Assembly: GCA_016213435.1 (NCBI GenBank)
Contig: JACRAL010000028.1
Span: 2,196 to 66,195 of the forward strand
Length of the DNA: 64,000 nt
Source: Bacteroidota bacterium
GTDB taxonomy: Bacteria > Bacteroidota > Bacteroidia > Palsa-948
Direction of reading: 5' to 3'
The notes beneath the pieces were generated by a model. It was not told the origin of the DNA. It saw nothing but the letters and a program-made list of their open reading frames with translations, and did no database searches. A program made the translations under genes and the position numbers. Position 1 is the stretch's first letter. The number at the start of each line of letters is the position of its first letter. Of the stretch, positions 3,552 to 58,802 are shown piece by piece.

Positions 3552-3697
3552 AGAAGCCCCTCTTTATCTCCCCGAAGGGGAGAAACTAAAAAGCCAAAAT
3601 ACAAAATAAAAAAGCGTTGCCTTGCATTTGGATATTATTTTCATTTTAGATATTGAATTTTCTCCTTCCCTTCGGGAAGGGTGGGATGGGCTTTATT

Positions 3698-4177
3698 TCA
3701 GTATCCCATCAGCAGACAGATTGCATAGGCACAAATACCTTCTTCTCTTCCAACAAAGCCCAGATGTTCCGTGGTAGTGGCTTTGATAGAAATATTTTTA
3801 AGTGGAATATGTAAGGTCTCAGCCAGAATATGTTTCATTTCCGGAATGTAGGGAGCGATTTTGGGAGATTCAAGTGTTACGGTACAATCCACATTGCCAA
3901 TTTCATACCCTTGTTTCTTAAGCATTTCTGCAACTTTCTTTAAGAGTTTTTTACTGTCTATCCCTTTAAATTCCTCCGATGTATTTGGGAAATGTGTGCC
4001 AATGTCACCAAGATTTGCTGCGCCAAGAAATGCATCGCACATAGCGTGAATTAATGTATCAGCATCAGAATGACCTTCGGCCCCTTTTGTATGAGGAATT
4101 TTTATTCCACCAAGCCAAAAATCCTGTCCTTCTTTCAGTGGGTGAACATCATAACCGAACCCAACACGTATCTTCAT
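3698..4177 (-). CDS. ispF: 2-C-methyl-D-erythritol 2,4-cyclodiphosphate synthase
   Basis: 'GYDVHPL', 'GHSDADTLIHA' and 'GDIGTHFP' motifs; 159 aa. Confidence 0.9.
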   Translation of the reverse strand: MKIRVGFGYDVHPLKEGQDFWLGGIKIPHTKGAEGHSDADTLIHAMCDAFLGAANLGDIGTHFPNTSEEFKGIDSKKLLKKVAEMLKKQGYEIGNVDCTVTLESPKIAPYIPEMKHILAETLHIPLKNISIKATTTEHLGFVGREEGICAYAICLLMGY

Positions 4178-10528: not shown

Positions 10529-10603
10529 ATATTTTTTGTTGTCATTCCGAACGTAGTGAGGAATCTCTTTGTGAGATTGCTTCGCTTCGCTCGCAATGAC
10601 GAA

Positions 10604-11418: not shown

Positions 11419-11454
11419 AAGCCCCTCCTAAATCCTCCCCGTTAGGGAGGACTT
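11419..11454 (-). promoter_or_regulatory. 36-bp GC-rich element: 5'-UTR hairpin + AGGAGGGG (SD-like) immediately upstream of nuoJ start
   Basis: mRNA sense reads AAGUCCUCCCUAACGGGGAGGAUUUAGGAGGGGCUUUAUAUG. An identical copy lies at 12126-12161 before nuoI. Confidence 0.6.
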
Positions 11455-11502: not shown

Positions 11503-11539
11503 CCCCGCTTTCTCCTCCCCAGTGGGGAGGTCGGGGCTC
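11503..11539 (-). repeat. Nested GC-rich hairpin immediately 3' of nuoI stop (GAGCCCCGACCUCCCCACUGGGGAGGAGAAAGCGGGGCAC)
   Basis: Two nested inverted repeats (GCCCCG/CGGGGC and CCTCCCC/GGGGAGG); an intra-operon stem-loop. Confidence 0.5.
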
Positions 11540-12125: not shown

Positions 12126-12161
12126 AGCCCCTCCTAAATCCTCCCCGTTAGGGAGGACTTG
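12126..12161 (-). promoter_or_regulatory. Second identical copy of the 36-bp hairpin + SD-like element upstream of nuoI
   Basis: 36/36 identity with 11419-11454; ends 3 nt before the nuoI AUG. Confidence 0.6.
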
Positions 12162-17543: not shown

Positions 17544-20500
17544 ATGAGTAAATACACAGAATATAAAAACCTGAACCTTCCCGAAATAGGAAAGGAAATT
17601 CTTGATCTGTGGGAGAAAAACCACACCTTTGAAAAGAGCGTTACCTCGCGTGAAGGAGCTGAGCCCTTTGTTTTTTATGAAGGACCTCCATCAGCCAACG
17701 GCATGCCCGGCATTCATCACGTGATGGCACGAACCATAAAGGATTTATTCTGCCGTTACCAGACTTTAAAAGGAAAACAGGTAAAACGTAAAGCGGGTTG
17801 GGACACGCACGGGCTTCCGATCGAATTGGCGGTGGAAAAAACCTTAGGCATCACCAAGGAAGACATCGGAAAAAAAATCTCCATTGAAGATTACAACAAG
17901 GCATGCAGGACAGAGGTGATGAAGTATCAGGACAAATGGGAAGAAGTTACCCGTTTGATGGGATATTGGGTGGACATGAAACATCCGTATGTCACTTACG
18001 AAAACAATTACATCGAAAGTGTTTGGTGGCTGCTGAAAAAACTGTACGACAAAAAACTATTATATAAAGGATATACCATTCAGCCGTATTCTCCTGCTGC
18101 GGGAACGGGATTGAGTACGCATGAATTGAACCAACCGGGATGTTACAGGAATGTGAGGGATACGACTGCTGTGGCAATGTTCCGCCTCATCCCCAACCCT
18201 TCTCCGAAGGAGAAGGGAGAAATCCTCTCCTTTGGAGAGGATTTAGGTGAGGCGTATTTTCTTGCGTGGACGACAACTCCTTGGACTCTACCTTCGAATA
18301 CAGCCTTGGCTGTAGGAAAGAACATCAATTATGTTTTGATTGCTACCTTTAATCGTTTTACGTGGAAGAAATGTTTTGTGATTCTCGCGGAGGATTTATT
18401 TGGGAAGTATTTTCAGCGAATTGCAATTATTGGAAATTATACAGAAGAAGAAATTTTCAAAATACAAAACCCGTCTATTGCAGAGGCATTAAACCGCTTA
18501 GACAATCATCCGAAAGAGAAGAGAATTATTAACGGGCACGAATTAATCGGAGTTATTGTCTCAAGATTCACAGGAAAAGATATCGAAGGAATCCACTACG
18601 AACAACTTCTCCCTTTTAAAGCAAATGAAAAAGTGGAGTTGAACGGCAAACTCCTCCCCTTTGGGGAGGCGGGAGGGGCCGTTATTCTTGGAGATTTCGT
18701 TACCACCGAAGACGGAACCGGAATCGTTCACATAGCTCCAAGTTTTGGCGCGGATGACTTTAGAGTTGCGAAACAAAACGGAATTGGTTCGCTTACGCTG
18801 GTTGACAGGCGCGGAAAATTTTTTCCGGAAGTAAGAGATGATGTTTTTCTCTATGGAGACGAGTATGTGAAAGCAGAATATCTCACGGATACAGAAAAGC
18901 AAATTGAATTCCAAAAACAAAAAAAAGTTTTAGAAGCAGCTGGAAAAATTAAAGAACTGAAAGAATATCTAAGCGTTGATGAGCGCATTGTGCTGAAACT
19001 TCAGGAAGAAGGAAAGCTTTTTAAAAAAGAAAAATACGAGCACAGCTATCCTCATTGCTGGCGCACGGACAAACCTATTTTATATTATCCGCTTGACAGT
19101 TGGTTCGTGAAAGTGACTGAGTACAAAGACAGAATGGTAGAACTCAATAAAACCATCAACTGGAAACCGGCACATACAGGTACAGGGCGTTTTGGTGAGT
19201 GGCTGAACAATTTGCAGGATTGGAATTTGTCGCGCTCGCGCTTCTGGGGAATTCCGCTTCCGATCTGGAGAACAGAAGATGGCAAGGAAGAAAAAATTAT
19301 TGGTTCGGTGGATGATTTGAGAAAGGAAGTTAATAAAGCAGTACAGTCTGGTTTTATGAAGGTGTCCCCCTTTGAAGGGAGTGAGGAGGATGTGGATTTA
19401 CACAAACCGTATATCGACAGAGTATTTCTTGTTTCCGATTCAGGGAAAAAAATGACTCGTGAGTCAGATCTGATTGATGTCTGGTTCGATTCAGGCGCAA
19501 TGCCCTATGCTCAATGGCATTATCCGTTCGAAAATAAAGAAATGATTGATTCTCTCCCCTCTCCTGTGGGAGAGGGGTCTGGGGTGAGGCGGACCGGGGC
19601 TGCTTTCCCTGCCGACTTTATTGCAGAAGGAGTTGACCAAACCCGTGGATGGTTTTACACACTTCACGCTATTGCAGCTTTGTGTTTTGATTCGGTCGCT
19701 TATAAAAATGTGCTGAGCAATGGGTTGGTACTTGACAAGAATGGAAACAAGATGAGCAAACGCCTCGGCAATGCCGTTGATCCGTTCTCCACGCTTGAAA
19801 AATATGGTCCCGATGCGGTGCGCTGGTACATGGTCACAAATGCCGATCCTTGGGATAATTTAAAATTTGATTTGGAAGGAGTAGCAGAAAAGCAAAGAAG
19901 TTTTTTCGGAACGCTTTATAATACCTATGCTTTCTTTGCCCTTTATGCGAACATTGACAATTTCTCTTTTAAAGAAAAAGAAATTCCATTAAAAGACAAA
20001 CCCGAAATTGACCGATGGATTTTGTCAGAACTCAATTCGCTGATAAAATCGGTGGATGAAAGTTACAGCAGTTATGAGCCAACAAAAGCAGGCAGAGCGA
20101 TCGAAACTTTTGTGGACGAGCATTTGAGTAATTGGTATGTTCGTTTGTGCAGAAGGAGATTCTGGAAAGGAGAATACACACAGGATAAAATTTCTGCTTA
20201 TCAAACCTTATATCGTTGTCTGGAAGTGGTTGCGCAGCTTTCTTCGCCTATTGCACCTTTCTTCTGCGAGAAATTATTTAAAGACCTGAACGATATAACC
20301 GGAAGACAGAAAGCGGAGAGCGTGCATCTGAGTTTATTTCCAAAGATGGATGAGAGCTCTATTGATAAACCGCTGGAAGAGAGAATGGAAATAGCTCAGA
20401 AAATTTCTTCGATGATTCTTTCTATCCGGAAAAAGGAAAATATCCGTGTTCGTCAGCCACTTACAAAGATTCGAGTTCCGATATTGGATGATTCGTTCAA

Positions 20501-21134
20501 GAAAAAGCTGGAGCTTGTGAAAGATTTGATCCTTTCGGAAGTAAATGTAAAGGAGATTGAATATGTTGGAGAAGACGATGTACAAATCGTGAAAAACCTG
20601 AAGCTGAATTTCAAAACACTAGGTAAGAAATGTGGCAAACACATGAAAGCTGTTCAAGCGCATGCAACCGATCCTATTTATGCAAAACTTATTATCCAAT
20701 CTATTTCAAAAAATGATAGTTACGAAATAAAAATAGAGAACGAAACAATAGAACTTCTTCCTGAAGATGTTGAGATCATTCCGGTTGACATTCCGGGCTG
20801 GAAAGTGGCTAACAGCGGTGCGCTTACGGTCGCACTTGACATCACGCTTACCGAAAAATTAAAGGAGGAAGGAATAGCAAGGGAAATCGTAAATCGCATT
20901 CAGAATCTGCGAAAAGAGAAGAAATTTGAGGTTACAGATAAGATAGAAGTAAGGATAAAAGATCACAAGAAAATAAATTCAGCCATTTTAAATAATTTAG
21001 ATTACATTCGCGCGGAAATTTTGGCAAATACGTTTGAGATCGTCAGCGAGATTAATGGAAACGGCATTGAGATTGAAGTAGATGAAGAGATAAAAACAAT
21101 GGTCGAGATTGACCGCATTAAACAGTTAAACTAA
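17544..21134 (+). CDS. ileS: Isoleucine--tRNA ligase, carrying three in-frame palindromic-element insertions
   Basis: HIGH-type motif 'PSANGMPGIHH', 'WTTTPWTLP', 'WNLSRSRFWG' and KMSKS 'KMSKRLGN'. The 1196-aa length is about 50 aa longer than usual, owing to the GC-rich inserts. Confidence 0.95.
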   Translation: MSKYTEYKNLNLPEIGKEILDLWEKNHTFEKSVTSREGAEPFVFYEGPPSANGMPGIHHVMARTIKDLFCRYQTLKGKQVKRKAGWDTHGLPIELAVEKTLGITKEDIGKKISIEDYNKACRTEVMKYQDKWEEVTRLMGYWVDMKHPYVTYENNYIESVWWLLKKLYDKKLLYKGYTIQPYSPAAGTGLSTHELNQPGCYRNVRDTTAVAMFRLIPNPSPKEKGEILSFGEDLGEAYFLAWTTTPWTLPSNTALAVGKNINYVLIATFNRFTWKKCFVILAEDLFGKYFQRIAIIGNYTEEEIFKIQNPSIAEALNRLDNHPKEKRIINGHELIGVIVSRFTGKDIEGIHYEQLLPFKANEKVELNGKLLPFGEAGGAVILGDFVTTEDGTGIVHIAPSFGADDFRVAKQNGIGSLTLVDRRGKFFPEVRDDVFLYGDEYVKAEYLTDTEKQIEFQKQKKVLEAAGKIKELKEYLSVDERIVLKLQEEGKLFKKEKYEHSYPHCWRTDKPILYYPLDSWFVKVTEYKDRMVELNKTINWKPAHTGTGRFGEWLNNLQDWNLSRSRFWGIPLPIWRTEDGKEEKIIGSVDDLRKEVNKAVQSGFMKVSPFEGSEEDVDLHKPYIDRVFLVSDSGKKMTRESDLIDVWFDSGAMPYAQWHYPFENKEMIDSLPSPVGEGSGVRRTGAAFPADFIAEGVDQTRGWFYTLHAIAALCFDSVAYKNVLSNGLVLDKNGNKMSKRLGNAVDPFSTLEKYGPDAVRWYMVTNADPWDNLKFDLEGVAEKQRSFFGTLYNTYAFFALYANIDNFSFKEKEIPLKDKPEIDRWILSELNSLIKSVDESYSSYEPTKAGRAIETFVDEHLSNWYVRLCRRRFWKGEYTQDKISAYQTLYRCLEVVAQLSSPIAPFFCEKLFKDLNDITGRQKAESVHLSLFPKMDESSIDKPLEERMEIAQKISSMILSIRKKENIRVRQPLTKIRVPILDDSFKKKLELVKDLILSEVNVKEIEYVGEDDVQIVKNLKLNFKTLGKKCGKHMKAVQAHATDPIYAKLIIQSISKNDSYEIKIENETIELLPEDVEIIPVDIPGWKVANSGALTVALDITLTEKLKEEGIAREIVNRIQNLRKEKKFEVTDKIEVRIKDHKKINSAILNNLDYIRAEILANTFEIVSEINGNGIEIEVDEEIKTMVEIDRIKQLN

Positions 21135-22042: not shown

Positions 22043-22122
22043 AAAGTTTACAGTCTATGGTTTACAGTTTACGGTTTAAAACCAACTGTAAACCGTAGAC
22101 AGCAGACAGTAAACCGAATTTT

Positions 22123-22816: not shown

Positions 22817-23452
22817 ATGGCGAAGCCAAAGCCAAAATACTACGTAGTCTGGAAAGGAAAAGAGCCGGGTATTTTTGATTCCTGGGATACGTGCAAGAAG
22901 CAAATCCAAAATTTTACAGGGGCACAATACAAATCCTTTAAAACAAAGGAAGCAGCAGAAAGCGCATTTAAATTATCATACAAAGATGCTATCATCTCAC
23001 CCCTCACTCCCCTCTCCACGAGGAGAGGGGAAGAGGGAGAGGTGGTTGGTTATCCCATGCTCGAAAGCATCTCTGTAGATGCCGCTTTTAACGGAAAGGT
23101 AATGGAGTACAAAGGCGTTTACACCAAAACAAAACAAGAACTATTCAAGCTGGGTCCTTTTGAAGATGCAACAAATAATATCGGGGAATTCCTCGCTATC
23201 GTGCATGCCTTGGGTTATCTGAAAAAACAGCACAGCACGGTTCCCGTTTATTCCGACAGTGTTACAGCCATCCACTGGGTGAAAACGCATAAGGCAAACA
23301 CCAAACTAAAAGAAACCCCTGCAAACAAATCTCTTTTCTTTCTTATTGAAAGAGCGGAAAAGTGGTTAAGCCAGAATAAATACCCTAATAAACTCCTCAA
23401 GTGGGAGACAAAAGCATGGGGAGAGAACCCTGCTGACTTTGGCAGGAAGTAA
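22817..23452 (+). CDS. rnhA: Ribonuclease HI with N-terminal RNA/DNA hybrid-binding domain (Cauli_VI-type)
   Basis: N-terminal 'YYVVWKGKEPGIFDSWDTCKKQIQNFTGAQYKSFKTKEAAESAF' hybrid-binding domain, then an RNase H catalytic core (D..E..D..D). A GC-rich palindromic insert lies in the linker. Confidence 0.8.
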   Translation: MAKPKPKYYVVWKGKEPGIFDSWDTCKKQIQNFTGAQYKSFKTKEAAESAFKLSYKDAIISPLTPLSTRRGEEGEVVGYPMLESISVDAAFNGKVMEYKGVYTKTKQELFKLGPFEDATNNIGEFLAIVHALGYLKKQHSTVPVYSDSVTAIHWVKTHKANTKLKETPANKSLFFLIERAEKWLSQNKYPNKLLKWETKAWGENPADFGRK

Positions 23453-46020: not shown

Positions 46021-46571
46021 TGACAGCATTTGCAACACAAATCCTAAACAACGGAGCCTCGCTGAAAATTATTTCAGCCGATGGAACTCGTAATATTTTG
46101 AAAAATCAAATCCATGAAGTGAGCGTAATCAACGACACGGTAATTAAAATTGATATTGGTCAGGGAGCGTTGAACAATATCTTCATCAATTTTCCCGAAG
46201 TCAGCAATCCTCAAACGCCAACTCCTGATGCACTCGTGGATGCAATCAACATAATGCTTCAAAATACTATTGTAATTCCTCCCGGCATTTCCACCGAGCT
46301 GAACCAACAAAAGGAAATTACGGACTTGGACAGCATAAAATCTTCCTTGCTGTTTCAGGCTCCGCAGATTTCCGATGAAACGAATCCGAAAACTATTTAT
46401 AAAGGATTCGCAGTTCCCGGCTCAAGAACTTCTGATGCAGTTTGGGCGATTCAGAAAATCACAAACAACAGGGGAATCTACACTTACCTGTGGGCGGGTG
46501 GAAATCAAAACTTTGACAAGGTTTGGGACAACCGAGCAACATTAATTTATCCGCCAAGTGCTAATGCGTAA
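46021..46571 (+). CDS. Hypothetical protein
   Basis: ATG at 46021 within the listed ORF 45936..46571; ends by overlapping the giant gene start. Confidence 0.4.
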
Positions 46572-49500
46572 GCATAAACCATATCAGGTAAAACCCGAAA
46601 TGATTTTCACGCTTGGGTATTTGCAGCAAGGCGAGATACCCGAAGTGAAACTGCGATTGAACAGGTCTTCCCGAAAAAAACTTTTCGGGAAGATTGGTTC
46701 ATCGAAAGATGTAGCAGATTTCATCCGTAAGATTTATAAACGCGGTGAAATTGAATTGCAGGAACAATTTATCGTGCTGTATCTCGACAGGGGAAATAAT
46801 ATTATTGGATTTTACAGGCATACCACAGGTGCGATAAGCGGAACGATTGCCGATGTGAGAATTATTCTTGCGGCTGCTTTGAAAAGCGCAAGCACTTCCA
46901 TTATTATAGCTCACAATCATCCAAGCGGAAACCTTCAACCAAGCCAAGCAGACATTGACCTCACAAAAAAGATAAAGGAAAGTGCGAACACAATGGATAT
47001 TTCCCTGCTTGACCATGTGATTGTAACAAAGGATGGTTATTATTCCTTCGGAGATGAAGGATTGGTTGGCTTGGAAGAAAATGAAATCGGTTTTGTAAAC
47101 AGCAAGCTCAAGCCGGATATCAATAAAGTGATTCAAGGCGATGTTCTCGAAACCCTAAAAGATTTTCCCGATGAGAGCGTGGACTGTGTTATCACTTCAC
47201 CTCCGTACTGGCAACTGCGCGACTATGGATGGAAAGGGCAATGGGGCTTGGAAAAAACTTTTGACAAGTACCTTGAGAATCTTTGGAAACTCATGGATGA
47301 AATCAGGCGCGTACTTAAACCGAAAGGAACTGTTTGGATTAATCTTGGCGACACTTACGGAACACAGTCGGGAACGGGCCGGGGAACGCAGTACATCAGC
47401 AAAAGCACAAAGCACCATGTAGAAAACGGAGCAACTCTCATCAAAGGAAAAGCTCCGCATAAATCACAATTATTAATTCCGCATCGCTTCGCTATCGGGT
47501 GTATGGAACGCGGATGGATTGTACGCAATGATATTATTTGGGCGAAGAAAAATTCAATGCCTGAAAGCGTGAAAGACCGTTTTGCAAAAAAGCATGAGTA
47601 CGTTTTCTTGATGGTAAAAGAAAAGGATTATTATTTCGATTTGGACAGCGTGAGAGAACCGCATAAGGCAGAATCAGTCGAGAGAACAAAGCGCGGATGG
47701 AACGGACACAGGGAAAAAGGAAGTTCGTATGAAAACATGGATGAAAAAAAGATGTGCCACCCTGACGGAAAGAATCCCGGAGACATTTCTGATTTTTGGA
47801 AAATTCAAAACAAAGGCGGACACGATAAACACTATGCAAAATACAGTTCCGACTTACTCACCAAGCCGATTCTTGCAGGTTGTCCCAAAGGCGGAATTGT
47901 ACTGGACCCGTTCTGCGGGACTGCAAGCACAGGCGTAAGGGCGATTGAACTCGGAAGAAAATTCATCGGCATTGAAGGGAAGAAAGAATACTGCCACATA
48001 GCCGAAAAGAATCTGAAAAATATTTCCCTGAACGGATTGGGATTACTCAGCACTATTCCCAAGTGGCAGTTCGTTGAAAAAGTTGAAAAGGATTTGGAGA
48101 AAAAAATTTCCTACAACAAACGCTCTATTGAAAAACTTGCAGCAACCTTCGGAATCCACGATAAAACTTTGGTGAAGGAACTTACAGAACTTGCTATTGT
48201 ACGCAGGGCAAGATCCCTCGCGCACAGTCAGGAAAGCGAAAAGGAAAAATTTGATTCCATTGTTGAGCTATACAACAGCCAGGTCAATCTTTCCCACCGC
48301 ACAAGCCAAAGTATTTTATTGCAACAATATTCTACGCCCGCGCCAATCACATTCCTCGCAGGAATATTTGTTGGCGCGGACAAAGGCGTTTCTGTTTTTG
48401 AACCAAGCGCAGGAAATGGATTATTGACGATTGCAGGAACAGAGCAGAATATTATTGTAAATGAAATTGATTCTGTACGCAGGGAAAATCTGCACACGCA
48501 GGGGTACAAAATGGTTTTGAACCGCGATGCGACAAAACCATTTCCTGAGTTTTATCAAAAGATGAGCGCAGTTATTACCAATCCCCCTTTCGGTACGCTT
48601 GATACCGAAGTGATGTACGATAACTTTCCGATTAAAACGCTCGACCACCTGATGGCTCTGCGTGCGCTCGATACGATGAGGGACAACGGAAAGGCATCCA
48701 TCATAATCGGTGGGCACACGCAATGGGATGAGAAAGGCAGAATACAGGCAGGAAAGAACCGAATCTTTTTCAATTATCTGTATAGCCGCTATAACGTAAT
48801 TGACGTAATCAATATTGACGGCAGTTTATATTCACGGCAGGGAACATCCTTCGATGTGAGATTGATTTTGATTGACGGCAGAAAAAAAAATCCGCAGGGA
48901 GCCGCGCCTGTAAAAAATTCCGAACTATCTAATACTGTAAAAACATTTGATGCTTTATACGAAAGGGTGAACGATGCAATTAGCGCAAGCGGGCTTTCGG
49001 AAATCAAAAGATTCAATTCTCTGAAAGAAAAATATCCCGATGTGGTTTTGCTTTTAAATACAGGAAGTTTTTACGAAACATTCGGGGAAGATGCTGTTGC
49101 AACCTCAAAAATTATCGGAACTGTTTTATCGCATCGCAACGGTATTCCCGTAACGGGCTTCCCGCTTGTTTCCCTCGACAGTTATTTATCAAAACTCGTG
49201 AGAAGCGGAAACAAAGTAGCGATTGCCGATGAATTACAAAATCCAAAATCAATGAAACAAAATATTTCTTCTTTAGAACGCGAAGCATTGGCTTTGCAAA
49301 GACAACTTTTAGGCGAGGAACTTGGCTCGCCCTACATTCCCGCTTCCGAATCCTGCGTTGTGCTGAATACGCAAGTTCCCGATTCGATGAGCTTTGAAAC
49401 GCAGAAAGCACTCGAACAAATCCGTGAAGAAGTTGGCGGAGACATTGATGCGTTTGTACGGCATAGATTAAATTTTCGTAGTAAGATGGAACTCTGCAAG

Positions 49501-56517: not shown

Positions 56518-58446
56518 CTATTTAGGCAAGGATGAATTTTGTTGTGCCGAATTCAAAGCGGCTCTTGCTTTCTGAAGGTTGCCTGCAATATTTTTGTTGT
56601 TCGGATTCAACTGAAGTGCTTTCTCATAGTACGAAACAGCAGTTTTATAGTCCCCAAGGTTATGATTGATCGCCCCAAGATTCCCAAGCGCATCCGGATT
56701 ATTTGCATCATATTGGATTGCCTGCAGAAAATATTTTTTAGCCGACTCATAATCTTTGCGTTCAAAATAGATCACTCCGAGGTTATTTGCAGCAGAGGTA
56801 TAATCAGGCGAAACTTTTAGAGTCTGCTCGTAAACCTTCTCAGCGTTTTCCCTGTCTCCCATTCCATAATAGCAAACACCGGCATTGTAAAGTGCTTCCG
56901 TATTGTCAGGTAAAATCTCAATTGCTTTTTTATAATATGCAATTGCTTTTTGAAAAAGAGCAGATCGTTTGTTGGGAACCGGTTCTTTTTCCGCGAGTTC
57001 TCGATAGGAAGAACCGAGCGCACTTTCCGCCCTTGAACTTTTAGGAGTTGCTTCAACTCCTGATGCAAAAAGCGAGAAATTATCTTTCCAGTCTTTGTTG
57101 CGGTTAAATGTTTTGAAGGAGAACAACGCAAGGACAACAAACAAAATGATGCCCCGACCCTGAAGGGAGAAGAAGGAACTGCGATTGCTCCCTTTAGGGT
57201 TGGGGCAAATCACTACTGCAACAGCAATACAAAACGCCAATGACGGAGTGAACAAAAACCGTTCTCCCAGCGTTGCACCGATCATGATGAAGATGTTTGA
57301 TACCACCGACATCGTAACAAAAAAAAACAAAATGCAGTAAGCATAAACAGCCATTGCTGATTGCTGATTTCTGGTCTCTGGTTTTCTGAGCAATTGGACT
57401 AAAAAATGTAAAGAATAAATTCCAAGTACGGCAAACACACACAATATGAGAATAACTTTAATATCCGAGAAAGAAACAATCGGTATTTGATTGAAAGAAT
57501 AATCCCACGAAAGGGGATGAGGAAAAAATAAAAGCAGAATATATTTTCCAAGAATTAAAAGCGCAGTGGCTATCCTGTCTGAACCGTTTGTAGCTGCAGC
57601 CAGTGCGTTGTTCACCACTTTCATTTTCTCAGCAAAAGTTACGGTCTCAAGCACCGAACTTCGTATAACCATATAAACTCCGAATGCAGCAGCAAAAGAG
57701 ATCATGCCGAGTCCGATTTTTTTCAAAGGAACACTTCGAAAAAAAAATATCGTCAGCGGGATAATCGCAAGAAATGTTACCGCCATTTCTTTGCAAAGAA
57801 GAGAGAGAAAGAAGAACAGAACGCTCAAAAAGAAATATTTTTTAAAACCCGTATCAATATGTTTAAGGATGAAAAGAAGTACGAACTCAAAAAAAATAAA
57901 GTTCAATATGTCGTCTCTGCCTTTTATGTTTGCCACTGCTTCGGTGTGAATGGGATGAGCAGCAAAAAGCAAGGTGATGACCAGAGGAATGACCTCACCC
58001 CCAACCCCTCTCCCAAAGGAGAGGGGAGAAGATTTCTCGTTAAACAATTGTTTCATCAAACGAAAAAGTAAAACACACGACAATGCAAATAACAAAACAT
58101 TTATAAAATGCCCCGTATGCGGATTATTTTCAAAAAAATGTTTTTCGATTGCAAAAATGACAGACACCACAGGGCGGTAGGACTGATCATTATGCCCCGT
58201 GAAACCGTAAATAAAACTATGATGGAGAATACTTGGTATGCCGCTCAATCCCGCCTGAACATCTTTGTTCTTCAAATACACCACATCGTCATCCAGCACA
58301 TAGCCGTGGTTCAGCGTGTTTGCGTAAAGCAAAAATGCAAAAGCAAAAACAATAAATGAAAGTAAACGGTCTTTTGTGGAAAGAGAAGGCTTGTTTGCAG
58401 GTCGGGATTTAAAATCCCGACCAACTGACTTCTTTTTTTTGTTCAT
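56518..58446 (-). CDS. Multi-pass membrane protein with C-terminal TPR repeats (TMTC/PMT_2-like glycosyltransferase-type architecture)
   Basis: ~11 transmembrane helices, then at least four TPR motifs ('ALYNAGVCYYGMGD', 'AANNLGVIYFERKDY', 'ALGNLGAINHNLGDY'). The CDS contains two in-frame GC-rich palindromic inserts. Confidence 0.7.
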   Translation of the reverse strand: MNKKKKSVGRDFKSRPANKPSLSTKDRLLSFIVFAFAFLLYANTLNHGYVLDDDVVYLKNKDVQAGLSGIPSILHHSFIYGFTGHNDQSYRPVVSVIFAIEKHFFENNPHTGHFINVLLFALSCVLLFRLMKQLFNEKSSPLSFGRGVGGEVIPLVITLLFAAHPIHTEAVANIKGRDDILNFIFFEFVLLFILKHIDTGFKKYFFLSVLFFFLSLLCKEMAVTFLAIIPLTIFFFRSVPLKKIGLGMISFAAAFGVYMVIRSSVLETVTFAEKMKVVNNALAAATNGSDRIATALLILGKYILLLFFPHPLSWDYSFNQIPIVSFSDIKVILILCVFAVLGIYSLHFLVQLLRKPETRNQQSAMAVYAYCILFFFVTMSVVSNIFIMIGATLGERFLFTPSLAFCIAVAVVICPNPKGSNRSSFFSLQGRGIILFVVLALFSFKTFNRNKDWKDNFSLFASGVEATPKSSRAESALGSSYRELAEKEPVPNKRSALFQKAIAYYKKAIEILPDNTEALYNAGVCYYGMGDRENAEKVYEQTLKVSPDYTSAANNLGVIYFERKDYESAKKYFLQAIQYDANNPDALGNLGAINHNLGDYKTAVSYYEKALQLNPNNKNIAGNLQKARAALNSAQQNSSLPK

Positions 58447-58679: not shown

Positions 58680-58802
58680 ATATCTAAGATTTAATAACAA
58701 TGAGTTAAAGCAGTTGTCGCAAAAGTATGAAAAAGTTTTTCCCCAGCCCTAAAGGGAGCAATACAACTTATATTCTCCCTTTAGGGTCGAGGCGGCTGTT
58801 GG

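Follow-up and report, generated by a model that had tools for sequence, protein, structure and literature searches.

How do GC-rich palindromes come to lie within the coding sequence of a tRNA synthetase gene without breaking it, and to which kind of repeat do they belong? The question is raised by ileS, the isoleucyl-tRNA synthetase gene in a 64,000-nucleotide stretch of DNA from a Bacteroidota bacterium (contig JACRAL010000028.1, positions 2,196 to 66,195; hereafter the window). The original prediction, made from the letters of this stretch, described three palindromic elements of about 60% GC in the gene and likened them to the Rickettsia palindromic elements (RPEs), as something new for Bacteroidota. 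Our sequence comparisons indicate that they are instead members, or a close variant, of the repeat family called BoxC, PIT (potential intrastrand triplex) or TMECO. We also find that these units recur in the same three loops of IleS, and that in other bacteria two inverted units bracket DUF559 genes, including at one of the IleS positions that holds a single unit in the window. The earlier interpretation was correct on the behaviour of the elements, and wrong on their family and novelty.

The protein encoded by this gene is 100% identical to the NCBI entry 'MAG: isoleucine--tRNA ligase [Bacteroidetes bacterium]', whose record carries the Pfam domains PF00133, PF08264 and PF19302, and it matches a solved IleRS structure (PDB 8c8w) with E = 1.6e-222. 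The three segments, at 18191-18252, 18651-18680 and 19551-19600, lie where they had been placed and give the peptides quoted for them in the ileS frame; alignment also bears out their placement ahead of the blocks WTTTPWTLP and GDFVTTEDGTG. Their GC contents are 0.53, 0.77 and 0.72, respectively, versus 0.40 in the rest of ileS, so that the earlier figure was roughly right. They occupy three loops, as had been stated; the number of units is four, since the first segment consists of two units placed head to head (Table 1).

Aligning the window copies revealed a constant block beside each hairpin. On its G-rich strand, a unit is composed of a pyrimidine arm (Y), a loop of 3-6 nt, the complementary purine arm (R), a second loop of 1-6 nt and a mirror purine block, and it spans 26-34 nt in total. 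Two sequence types are present: type I has the blocks CCCCTCTCC/GGAGAGGGG/GGGGTGAGG and type II has CCTCCCC/GGGGAGG/GGAGGGG, and the mirror block often bears a single T mismatch, GGG(G)TGAGG, as it does in Escherichia coli copies. At site 1 of ileS, unit 1a reads Y CCCTTCTCC, TTC, R GGAGAAGGG, TTG and mirror block GGGGATGAGG on the minus strand, with one mismatch, while unit 1b reads TCCTCTCC/TTT/GGAGAGGA/TTT/AGGTGAGG. The two lie 5 nt apart and form a 68-nt inverted pair devoid of cargo; the predicted fold of the pair, together with an outer 9-bp stem (CGCCTCA...TGAGGCG), is a three-way junction at -45.6 kcal/mol (z = -7.4). The site-2 unit, CCTCCCC/TTT/GGGGAGG/CG/GGAGGGG, has a perfect mirror block. 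The site-3 unit (19556-19589) reads CCCCTCTCC/TGTG/GGAGAGGGG/TCT/GGGGTGAGG and has a counterpart in the TPR/TMTC-like gene, where the unit is CCCCTCTCC/TTTG/GGAGAGGGG/TTG/GGGGTGAGG; all three blocks are identical and the loops alone differ.

Such units are far more frequent than chance would allow. A scan for three-block units (arms of at least 6 nt, at most one mismatch in the mirror block) found 10 in the window, among them all four ileS units, against 0.005 expected from 200 dinucleotide shuffles; one extra copy with two mismatches brings the number to about 11 in 64 kb. For the simpler pattern CTCC-N2-10-GGAG the count is 15, with 3.0 expected and none of 100 shuffles reaching 15; for hairpins whose arm is a C-rich polypyrimidine tract it is 12, where dinucleotide shuffles give 0.1. 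The copies are dispersed; one inverted pair is found, at ileS site 1, and a single nuo spacer has two copies. As the original prediction had noted, they also lie outside ileS: in the linker of an RNase H1 gene, in the TPR/TMTC-like gene and at several intergenic sites. Could the ileS segments nonetheless be ordinary lineage-specific loop variation, or an assembly artefact? Sites 1 and 2 do fall in regions whose length varies in all IleS sequences. The counts, the presence of the same sequence in intergenic DNA and in other genes, and the recovery of the same units at the same sites in independent assemblies (JGI, ENA, NCBI and Logan) refute this explanation, to which we assign a negligible probability.

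Six of the copies, in at least three genes, are translated in frame (four in ileS, one each in the RNase H1 and TPR genes). The units appear well suited to coding DNA: 168 of 226 have at least five of their six frames open, compared with 3.1 open frames expected for random 32-mers, and the encoded peptides are rich in Pro, Ser, Gly and Glu. The hairpins of the in-gene copies have stabilities of -17 to -46 kcal/mol, with z-scores for solo units that are unexceptional in Watson-Crick folding. A search of Rfam at the gathering threshold returned only a tRNA at 56353-56440 and no RNA family over the units.

To what family do these units belong? BoxC/PIT repeats were reportedly described by Bachellier in the 1990s and by Hoyne and Maher in 2000. 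We took an exact 25-base pattern (CCTCACCCC-N2-4-CCCTCTCC-N3-6-GGAGAGGG) from the window and searched it against one genome per GTDB species; it matched at least 120 loci in many phyla. The matches listed include Pseudomonas, Xanthomonas, Enterobacter, Klebsiella, Acinetobacter, Geomonas and Akkermansia as well as Chloroflexota, Planctomycetes, Acidobacteria, Verrucomicrobia and many Bacteroidota, and among these loci conservation ends sharply at the unit ends. The motif is the one that Holder et al. (2015; PMC4666352) named TMECO, formerly BoxC and PIT, with the consensus CCCTCNCCC-N3-6-GGGNGAGGG-N3-GGGNGAGGG. They reported 23 copies in E. coli K-12, 'always intergenic', and 3610 copies in 262 proteobacterial genomes, with GC-rich motifs also abundant in cyanobacteria; a single strand of TMECO formed a triplex in vitro, and none was detected in vivo (PMC4666352).

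The likeness extends to architecture and habit. Both sets of repeats have three blocks of nearly identical sequence, an CCCTCNCC(C) arm, its complement GGGNGAGGG and the mirror GGGTGAGG, with the same T mismatch; in both, conserved stems go with variable loops, the copies are scattered and often form inverted pairs, and the DNA next to them is unstable. Enterobacterial copies matched by the window pattern fit the TMECO consensus exactly, while the type-I copies of the window need a register shift of one base and the type-II copies are a variant. Of 5426 complete E. coli genomes, 3998 contain a match of 80-95% identity to a 48-mer at site 3, though each match alone is weak (E about 0.8), and no annotated feature lies beneath it among the ten E. 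coli matches listed. On these sequence grounds we assign the palindromes to the BoxC/PIT/TMECO family, as members or as a close variant. They differ from the copies of E. coli K-12 in that 6 of about 11 are translated, in a 40%-GC Bacteroidota genome; however, to lie between genes is what has been described of the E. coli copies and is not part of the structural definition. Since the repeat is of a catalogued family and is spread over many phyla, the novelty claimed for Bacteroidota does not hold. What does appear to be new, as far as we could find, is its life inside open reading frames (ORFs) of a Bacteroidota genome: our literature search turned up no account of BoxC-type units within coding sequence, nor of any in Bacteroidota.

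The comparison with RPEs is apt for behaviour. RPE-1 to RPE-8 were reportedly described by Ogata et al. in 2000 and 2002. RPE-1, a palindromic insert described as longer than the present units, measures about 100-150 bp. Like the units, RPEs are palindromes that lie in frame in conserved genes, add surface peptides, leave function intact and have no known transposase, and the window does hold a dispersed in-frame repeat that leaves its host genes whole. By their descriptions, however, RPEs are longer, are confined to Rickettsia and its relatives, are unrelated in sequence and have neither a mirror block nor an endonuclease ORF, whereas the present repeats are 26-34 nt three-block units that closely resemble the BoxC/TMECO consensus and are found in dozens of phyla. 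It is therefore highly improbable that they are RPEs, or a direct Bacteroidota counterpart spreading as RPEs do.

Repetitive extragenic palindromic (REP) elements of the GTAG/CGTC type offer a closer precedent, since they occur within genes outside Rickettsia, including tRNA synthetase genes (Di Nocera et al. 2013; PMC3733652). These are palindromes of 20-40 bp, often inverted dimers, which sometimes lie within repair, replication and tRNA synthetase genes and add 20-30 residues. If the window units were REPs or paired REPs (REPINs), they would be moved by a RAYT, an IS200/IS605-like tyrosine transposase, as the short palindromes, the frequent inverted pairing and the intragenic location might suggest. 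REPs of this type carry tags, though, and none of the 12 window copies has a GTAG or CGTC tag at its flanks, so the units do not belong to this class. No Y1 transposase or RAYT was found among 20 window ORFs scanned with Pfam (the window has about 30 more ORFs), and the gene that consistently lies between paired units elsewhere encodes not a RAYT but the predicted PD-(D/E)xK endonuclease DUF559. We consider mobilisation by a RAYT very unlikely. MITEs, which are miniature transposable elements with inverted repeats, resemble the units in having many short cargo-less copies, few gene-bearing copies and inverted-repeat ends; they differ in that we saw no duplication of the target site here, that the cargo is none of the known transposases and that each end is itself a hairpin with a mirror block. 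No insertion-sequence partner of the units was found.

We then asked whether the ileS copies are insertions or ancestral parts of the protein, by comparing 35 aligned IleS homologues and about 80 IleS loci for which DNA was available. Site 3 is a clean gap in the two closest ileS genes (L001 and L003, IleS 83% identical); the empty ileS site reads GAYGARRGAAARGCNTTCCC, and an empty short form ID-xxK(A/Y)-(F/Y)P is found in about 60 other loci. The peptide KGGA in the empty site of L001 was considered as the footprint of a lost unit and rejected, as the roughly 60 empty sites are generally purine-rich there (ID-xxKA-FP). The peptides of sites 1 and 3 align to gaps in the solved structure 8c8w. 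We relied on these gaps because an AlphaFold2 model of IleS, built from the 35-sequence alignment, was too poor to judge the exposure of the loops (mean pLDDT 55, with the catalytic core below 50). The loop at site 1 is variable in every lineage, and several unrelated lineages have their own units in it, one of them (L069) another inverted pair.

Site 2 has a different history. Its hairpin is present at the DNA level in four relatives (L005, L006, L013 and L055), with a variant in L008; the IleS proteins of these carriers are only 63-79% identical and the hairpin is preceded by an 11-residue extension, while closer lineages lack it. Most relatives have a short PKDGDAF loop in place of the insert. 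Seven to eight of nine codons of the site-2 unit are identical between carriers, against about 50% gene-wide (p = 0.02-0.15 per comparison). Judged from these alignments, site 2 is clearly an old and long-kept copy, conserved even at synonymous positions, which could be due either to selection at the host level or to gene conversion. It may then be argued that the in-gene copies, site 2 above all, are no longer selfish and are kept by the host for a useful structure, such as an mRNA hairpin pacing translation between IleRS domains, or for the peptide loop. The synonymous conservation (up to 8 of 9 codons) would fit this, as would the use at site 2 of CCC, GGG and CTC, which are minority codons in ileS, and the stability of the hairpins. 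Yet most relatives do without the insert, few codons were sampled, the same pattern would follow from gene conversion by other copies in the genome, and solo-unit folding is unexceptional. We regard host use as improbable, although less so than the RPE and RAYT explanations.

The expectation that all three inserts would be lineage-specific indels was realised for site 3, a clean insertion; sites 1 and 2 go further back and have a patchy distribution in relatives. Similar peptides do occur in the same three loops of IleS relatives at 57-79% identity, which the original prediction would have taken as a sign of ancestral protein features. Carriers of each site are nevertheless dispersed over a neighbour-joining IleS tree, their unit variants differ, and the sites of the nearest relatives are empty; the in-gene copies are therefore recurrent or long-lived DNA elements, repeatedly gained and lost at a few tolerant loops, and not ancestral features of the protein. 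In 1.15 Mb of related loci, 16 units were found, 10 of them in the same three ileS loops and two in the RNase H1 linker.

What could move such units? Among the species-scan matches listed, long stop-free stretches contain 47 of 142 copies overall and 11 of the 26 in low-GC loci. In the 120 loci listed, each of the six DUF559 ORFs found has inverted units on its two sides, at a distance of 430-570 nt from each other. Two units flank an in-frame DUF559 domain in LeuRS (L106 and L191), MetRS (L094) and a methyltransferase (L179). In IleS, homologues of 1260-1325 aa carry PF04480, and in five of them (P0027, P0034, P0047, P0065 and P0071) the arrangement unit-DUF559-unit lies in frame at site 3, between YPFENKE..ID and FPADFIAEG, with the flanking peptides PSPxLPKGKG and LPxGEGxGGA. 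The DNA of two such loci (L206 and L207) shows two inverted units around an AT-rich DUF559 body, without a stop codon in the host frame, and the site-3 unit of the window occupies the same codon position, in the same orientation, as their right-hand unit. DUF559 homologues with flanking unit-type peptides also lie in frame in RecG and in an AMP-binding enzyme (P0129); MetH appears on several homologue fragments, either as the label or as a Pfam domain, and guanylate kinase is the label of one stand-alone copy. The IleS-borne DUF559 domain is closest to copies borne by other IleS proteins (60-69%) and, after these, to RecG-borne copies. A stand-alone DUF559 gene between etfB and etfA (L208) is bracketed by units as well. 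In valS of Draconibacterium halophilum (L210, CP048409.1) a composite is flanked by unit-like matches that emerged only when the threshold was relaxed (stem of at least 5, up to 2 mismatches), and in E. coli K-12 a BoxC copy and a degenerate unit lie just downstream of the DUF559 gene ycjD, on its 3' side only. With ycjD set apart, 10 DUF559 loci were inspected, and in every one of them two inverted units enclose the ORF, those of L210 at the relaxed threshold.

The DUF559 domain of the relatives matches PDB 3hrl (E = 6.8e-20) and, weakly, 3r3p (E = 0.0034), the homing endonuclease I-Bth0305I of a mobile group I intron. Vsr-like EDxHD homing endonucleases were reportedly recognised by Dassa (2009) and Taylor (2011). 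A survey of PD-(D/E)xK proteins groups DUF559 with the I-Bth0305I family, and from these matches DUF559 is predicted to be a Vsr-like PD-(D/E)xK endonuclease related to that enzyme. Like the homing endonuclease genes of inteins and group I introns, the composite is a small ORF of Vsr-like fold at a fixed site in housekeeping genes (aminoacyl-tRNA synthetases, RecG and MetH) with a patchy distribution. Unlike them, it seems to be translated through, is bounded by repeat-encoded linkers and has MITE-like solo-end derivatives. The Pfam domains on DUF559-bearing IleS proteins are tRNA-synt_1, tRNA-synt_1g, Anticodon_1, DUF5915, DUF559 and MTES_1575 only, and no intein Hint domain or intron was found on their records. 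The BoxC literature, which covers Proteobacteria and GC-rich cyanobacterial motifs, holds no link to DUF559. Our own search, which did not extend to subscription journals, found no paper linking BoxC with DUF559, nor DUF559, ycjD, Vsr-like proteins or PF04480 with repeats or in-frame insertion. As far as we could find, the systematic pairing of the repeat with DUF559 genes at fixed positions in aminoacyl-tRNA synthetase and repair genes is new.

Taken together, these observations lead us to propose, as the probable explanation, that the units are BoxC-family repeats that serve as the inverted ends (or the preferred target) of a DUF559-carrying selfish element, ends that have been left behind as cargo-less copies. 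The element would measure about 440-570 nt and have the DUF559 ORF as its sole cargo; in a variant of the proposal, the units are its preferred target. The composite would enter genes in frame and be translated within the host protein, with the P/S/G/E-rich peptides encoded by the units acting as linkers, and cargo-less copies would result from deletion of the interior or from ends being mobilised in trans by themselves. In the window, ileS site 1 would represent the left and right ends, 5 nt apart, as an inverted pair, the copy in the RNase H1 linker would be a single hairpin that keeps both outer blocks, and ileS sites 2 and 3 and the TPR gene would hold solo ends. Survival in coding DNA may be favoured by a unit that is open in five of six frames and encodes a flexible, hydrophilic peptide, with selection retaining only copies of 3n length in insertion-tolerant loops. 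The putative endonuclease would drive spread by cutting either the unit structure or the empty site. In particular, we infer mobilisation of the units by the endonuclease, descent of the window copies from composites, and retention of the inserts without splicing. A bolder and more tentative version, which we favour less, would make BoxC units in general the ends and cargo-less derivatives of pan-bacterial miniature elements with DUF559 as their only gene, which invade IleRS, LeuRS, ValRS, MetRS, RecG and MetH in frame without RNA or protein splicing; the hosts would tolerate this because the repeat arms encode flexible linkers.

Several observations weigh against this proposal. No DUF559 ORF was found in the window by regular expression or tblastn, and any autonomous partner in the host organism is hypothetical. 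The three junctions that can be compared with empty sites (site 3 and the nuo spacers) show no convincing target-site duplication. The right-hand composite unit of L206 and L207 has a CCCTCCCC arm and the site-3 unit of the window a CCCCTCTCC arm; the latter is therefore not simply a leftover of the L206/L207 type, and an independent solo insertion is equally possible. The synonymous conservation of site 2 over 63-79% protein identity suggests selection at the level of the host or of the nucleic acid, and not passive junk. For TMECO, neither promoter or terminator activity nor any association with transposons, phages or plasmids was reported (PMC4666352). Only one of the 23 E. coli BoxC copies adjoins a DUF559 gene. 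Finally, the composites have two polarities: the outer block points outward in Bacteroidota, and toward the ORF in Acinetobacter (L092), in a betaproteobacterial metagenome-assembled genome (L094) and in Beijerinckiaceae (L113).

The two polarities fit units that are a target as well as units that are ends, and the strongest competitor to our proposal is indeed that the units are the target alone: a DUF559 homing-type endonuclease gene would insert into existing unit pairs, and the units themselves would spread by other means, such as structure-induced replication or repair errors or gene conversion. The single BoxC copy beside a DUF559 gene in E. coli would fit this, cargo-less inverted pairs into which such a gene could insert do exist, and the DNA near TMECO sites shows elevated local instability and is a hotspot of rearrangement (PMC4666352). 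This alternative leaves unexplained how near-identical 30-nt units with the same T mismatch came to be present across phyla, and how mirror repeats would arise de novo; it also requires that each of the IleS, LeuRS, MetRS and RecG composites was preceded by a unit pair at that very codon. We consider it unlikely, while rating it above every other alternative.

BoxC/PIT/TMECO repeats have been catalogued since the 1990s without a known origin, mobilising enzyme or function. Their bracketing of DUF559 genes by two inverted units now supplies a concrete candidate enzyme with defined substrates, and the same composite is found at one fixed IleRS codon and in other aminoacyl-tRNA synthetase and repair genes. 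In-frame life in essential genes, seen before for Rickettsia RPEs and some GTAG/CGTC REPs, extends to a pan-bacterial family in a low-GC member of the Bacteroidota. The units also account for many 'low-complexity' inserts rich in P/S/G, and many wrongly called small ORFs, in bacterial proteomes, and they flag a source of annotation error, in that genes are split at units and frameshift errors may arise at their homopolymer runs. If the bolder version of the element proposal were true, BoxC repeats would gain a source after 30 years as orphans, and a homing-type endonuclease would have a third way, besides introns and inteins, of residing inside an essential gene.

Table 1. Host gene and BoxC-type units in the window (positions are those of the 64,000-nt stretch)
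Feature	Position	Strand	Details
ileS, type-2 isoleucyl-tRNA synthetase, 1196 aa, host gene	17544-21134	+	from ORF list
ileS site 1a unit, C-rich strand coding	18185-18217	-	residues 214-225, RLIPNPSPKEKG
ileS site 1b unit, G-rich strand coding	18223-18252	+	residues 227-237, ILSFGEDLGEA
ileS site 2 unit	18653-18678	+	residues 370-379, LLPFGEAGGA
ileS site 3, 42-nt, 14-codon insertion holding unit 19556-19589	19549-19590	+	LPSPVGEGSGVR
Unit with outer blocks on both sides, RNase H1 linker (ORF 22817-23452)	22995-23042	.	residues 60-76, ISPLTPLSTRRGEEGEV
Unit in frame in TPR/TMTC-like membrane protein (ORF 56518-58446, -)	57993-58026	-	peptide SPLSFGRGVGGEV
Intergenic unit, some 10 nt upstream of a small minus-strand ORF (distance to its ATG)	3557-3583	-	TCTCCCC/TTC/GGGGAGA/TAA/AGAGGGG, 0 mismatches
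Intergenic unit, just past the ispF stop codon (YgbB, 3698-4177, -)	3664-3690	+	
Intergenic unit, directly upstream of the nuoJ start	11423-11451	-	part of a repeat of about 75 nt
Degenerate unit, just downstream of the nuoI stop	11503-11530	-	2 mismatches
Intergenic unit, directly upstream of the nuoI start	12129-12157	-	sequence as in 11423-11451

Of the copies outside ileS, the one in RNase H1 lies between the Pfam domains Cauli_VI and RNase_H. It consists of two overlapping units on opposite strands, with a predicted fold of -38.4 kcal/mol (z = -5.5), and it replaces a linker of equal length in L001 and L003, so that no length is added. The TPR-gene product carries the Pfam domains TPR and TMTC_DUF1736. 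In the nuo cluster, the nuoJ-nuoI spacer is 125 nt long, versus 18 nt in L001 and L003, and the nuoI-nuoH spacer is 70 nt, versus 5 nt in L001; in both, the extra DNA holds units. The copies at nuoJ and nuoI belong to a duplicated segment of about 75 nt, composed of a unit and an AT-rich tail. These two units and the one at 3557-3583, all on the minus strand, lie about 8-12 nt upstream of the starts of nuoJ, nuoI and the small ORF, and their free mirror block, (A)GGAGGGG or AGAGGGG, resembles a Shine-Dalgarno sequence, which is unusual for Bacteroidota. No three-block unit was found between 23.1 and 57.9 kb of the window.

Two further candidates in ileS were considered and rejected. A possible fourth element at 19362-19392 (VSPFEGSEED) shows neither the hairpin nor the three blocks and aligns with ordinary variable sequence. 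The 11 residues ahead of the site-2 unit (NEKVELNGKL) recall the C-terminal tail of DUF559 (KIKTELDALKT-LPFGEG); the sequences are too short and L013 and L055 do not share them, so that the resemblance stays at the level of speculation.

Other inserts were noted in IleS homologues. P0019, P0025 and P0005 have lineage-specific inserts of 40-60 aa near window residues 595-615 (for example ...GERMTGVALSVMRGRNESRGRFDDYSK...), which are unlike the triplex motifs, and in the alignment P0032 has the insert VIASEAKQSQ...SSASGLAMT at a fourth loop near residue 605. The nuoL-nuoK spacer of the window (10535-10600) holds a different dispersed inverted repeat, GTCATTCCGAACGTAGTGAGGAATC...GATTGCTTCGCTTCGCTCGCAATGAC. 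The P0032 peptide looks like a translated repeat of this nuoL-nuoK type; if so, a second family would lie in frame in IleS.

Two of the composite loci have peculiarities of their own. In the D. halophilum valS locus, taken from the complete genome of an isolate, the frame changes at each of three units (about 1429-1452, 1829-1855 and 2568-2594) and the gene is called as four ORFs; these changes are likely indel errors at G/C homopolymer runs, with recoding as the alternative. In E. coli K-12 (L205, NC_000913.3, 1351040-1351410), a duplicated DUF559 3' fragment (GGTTCAG.CCTTGC.GAATATTCTCCAGCACCGTCTCC) lies between fabI and ycjD, beside the BoxC copy and with the degenerate unit on its other side; this suggests that E. 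coli once held tandem or nested DUF559 elements.

Elsewhere in the window, an imperfect inverted repeat at 22046-22114, with arms of 24-26 nt that are 73-83% complementary (GTTTACAG/GTTTACGG-type), lies between a dksA-like gene and lspA, and a GC-rich, perfect 12-nt inverted repeat at 58747-58786 (CCCTAAAGGGAG ... CTCCCTTTAGGG, 16-nt spacer) lies between the TPR gene and an AhpC-like gene and is not of the three-block kind. The region from about 33000 to 56500 has the appearance of a mobile or defence island that has been integrated, and includes a 2128-aa fusion of RadC, an N6/N4 DNA methylase, MutS-I and an SNF2-type helicase (46558-52944), an AAA_24 protein and a serine recombinase (54788-56512) that abuts the tRNA gene at 56353-56440, which is on the minus strand.

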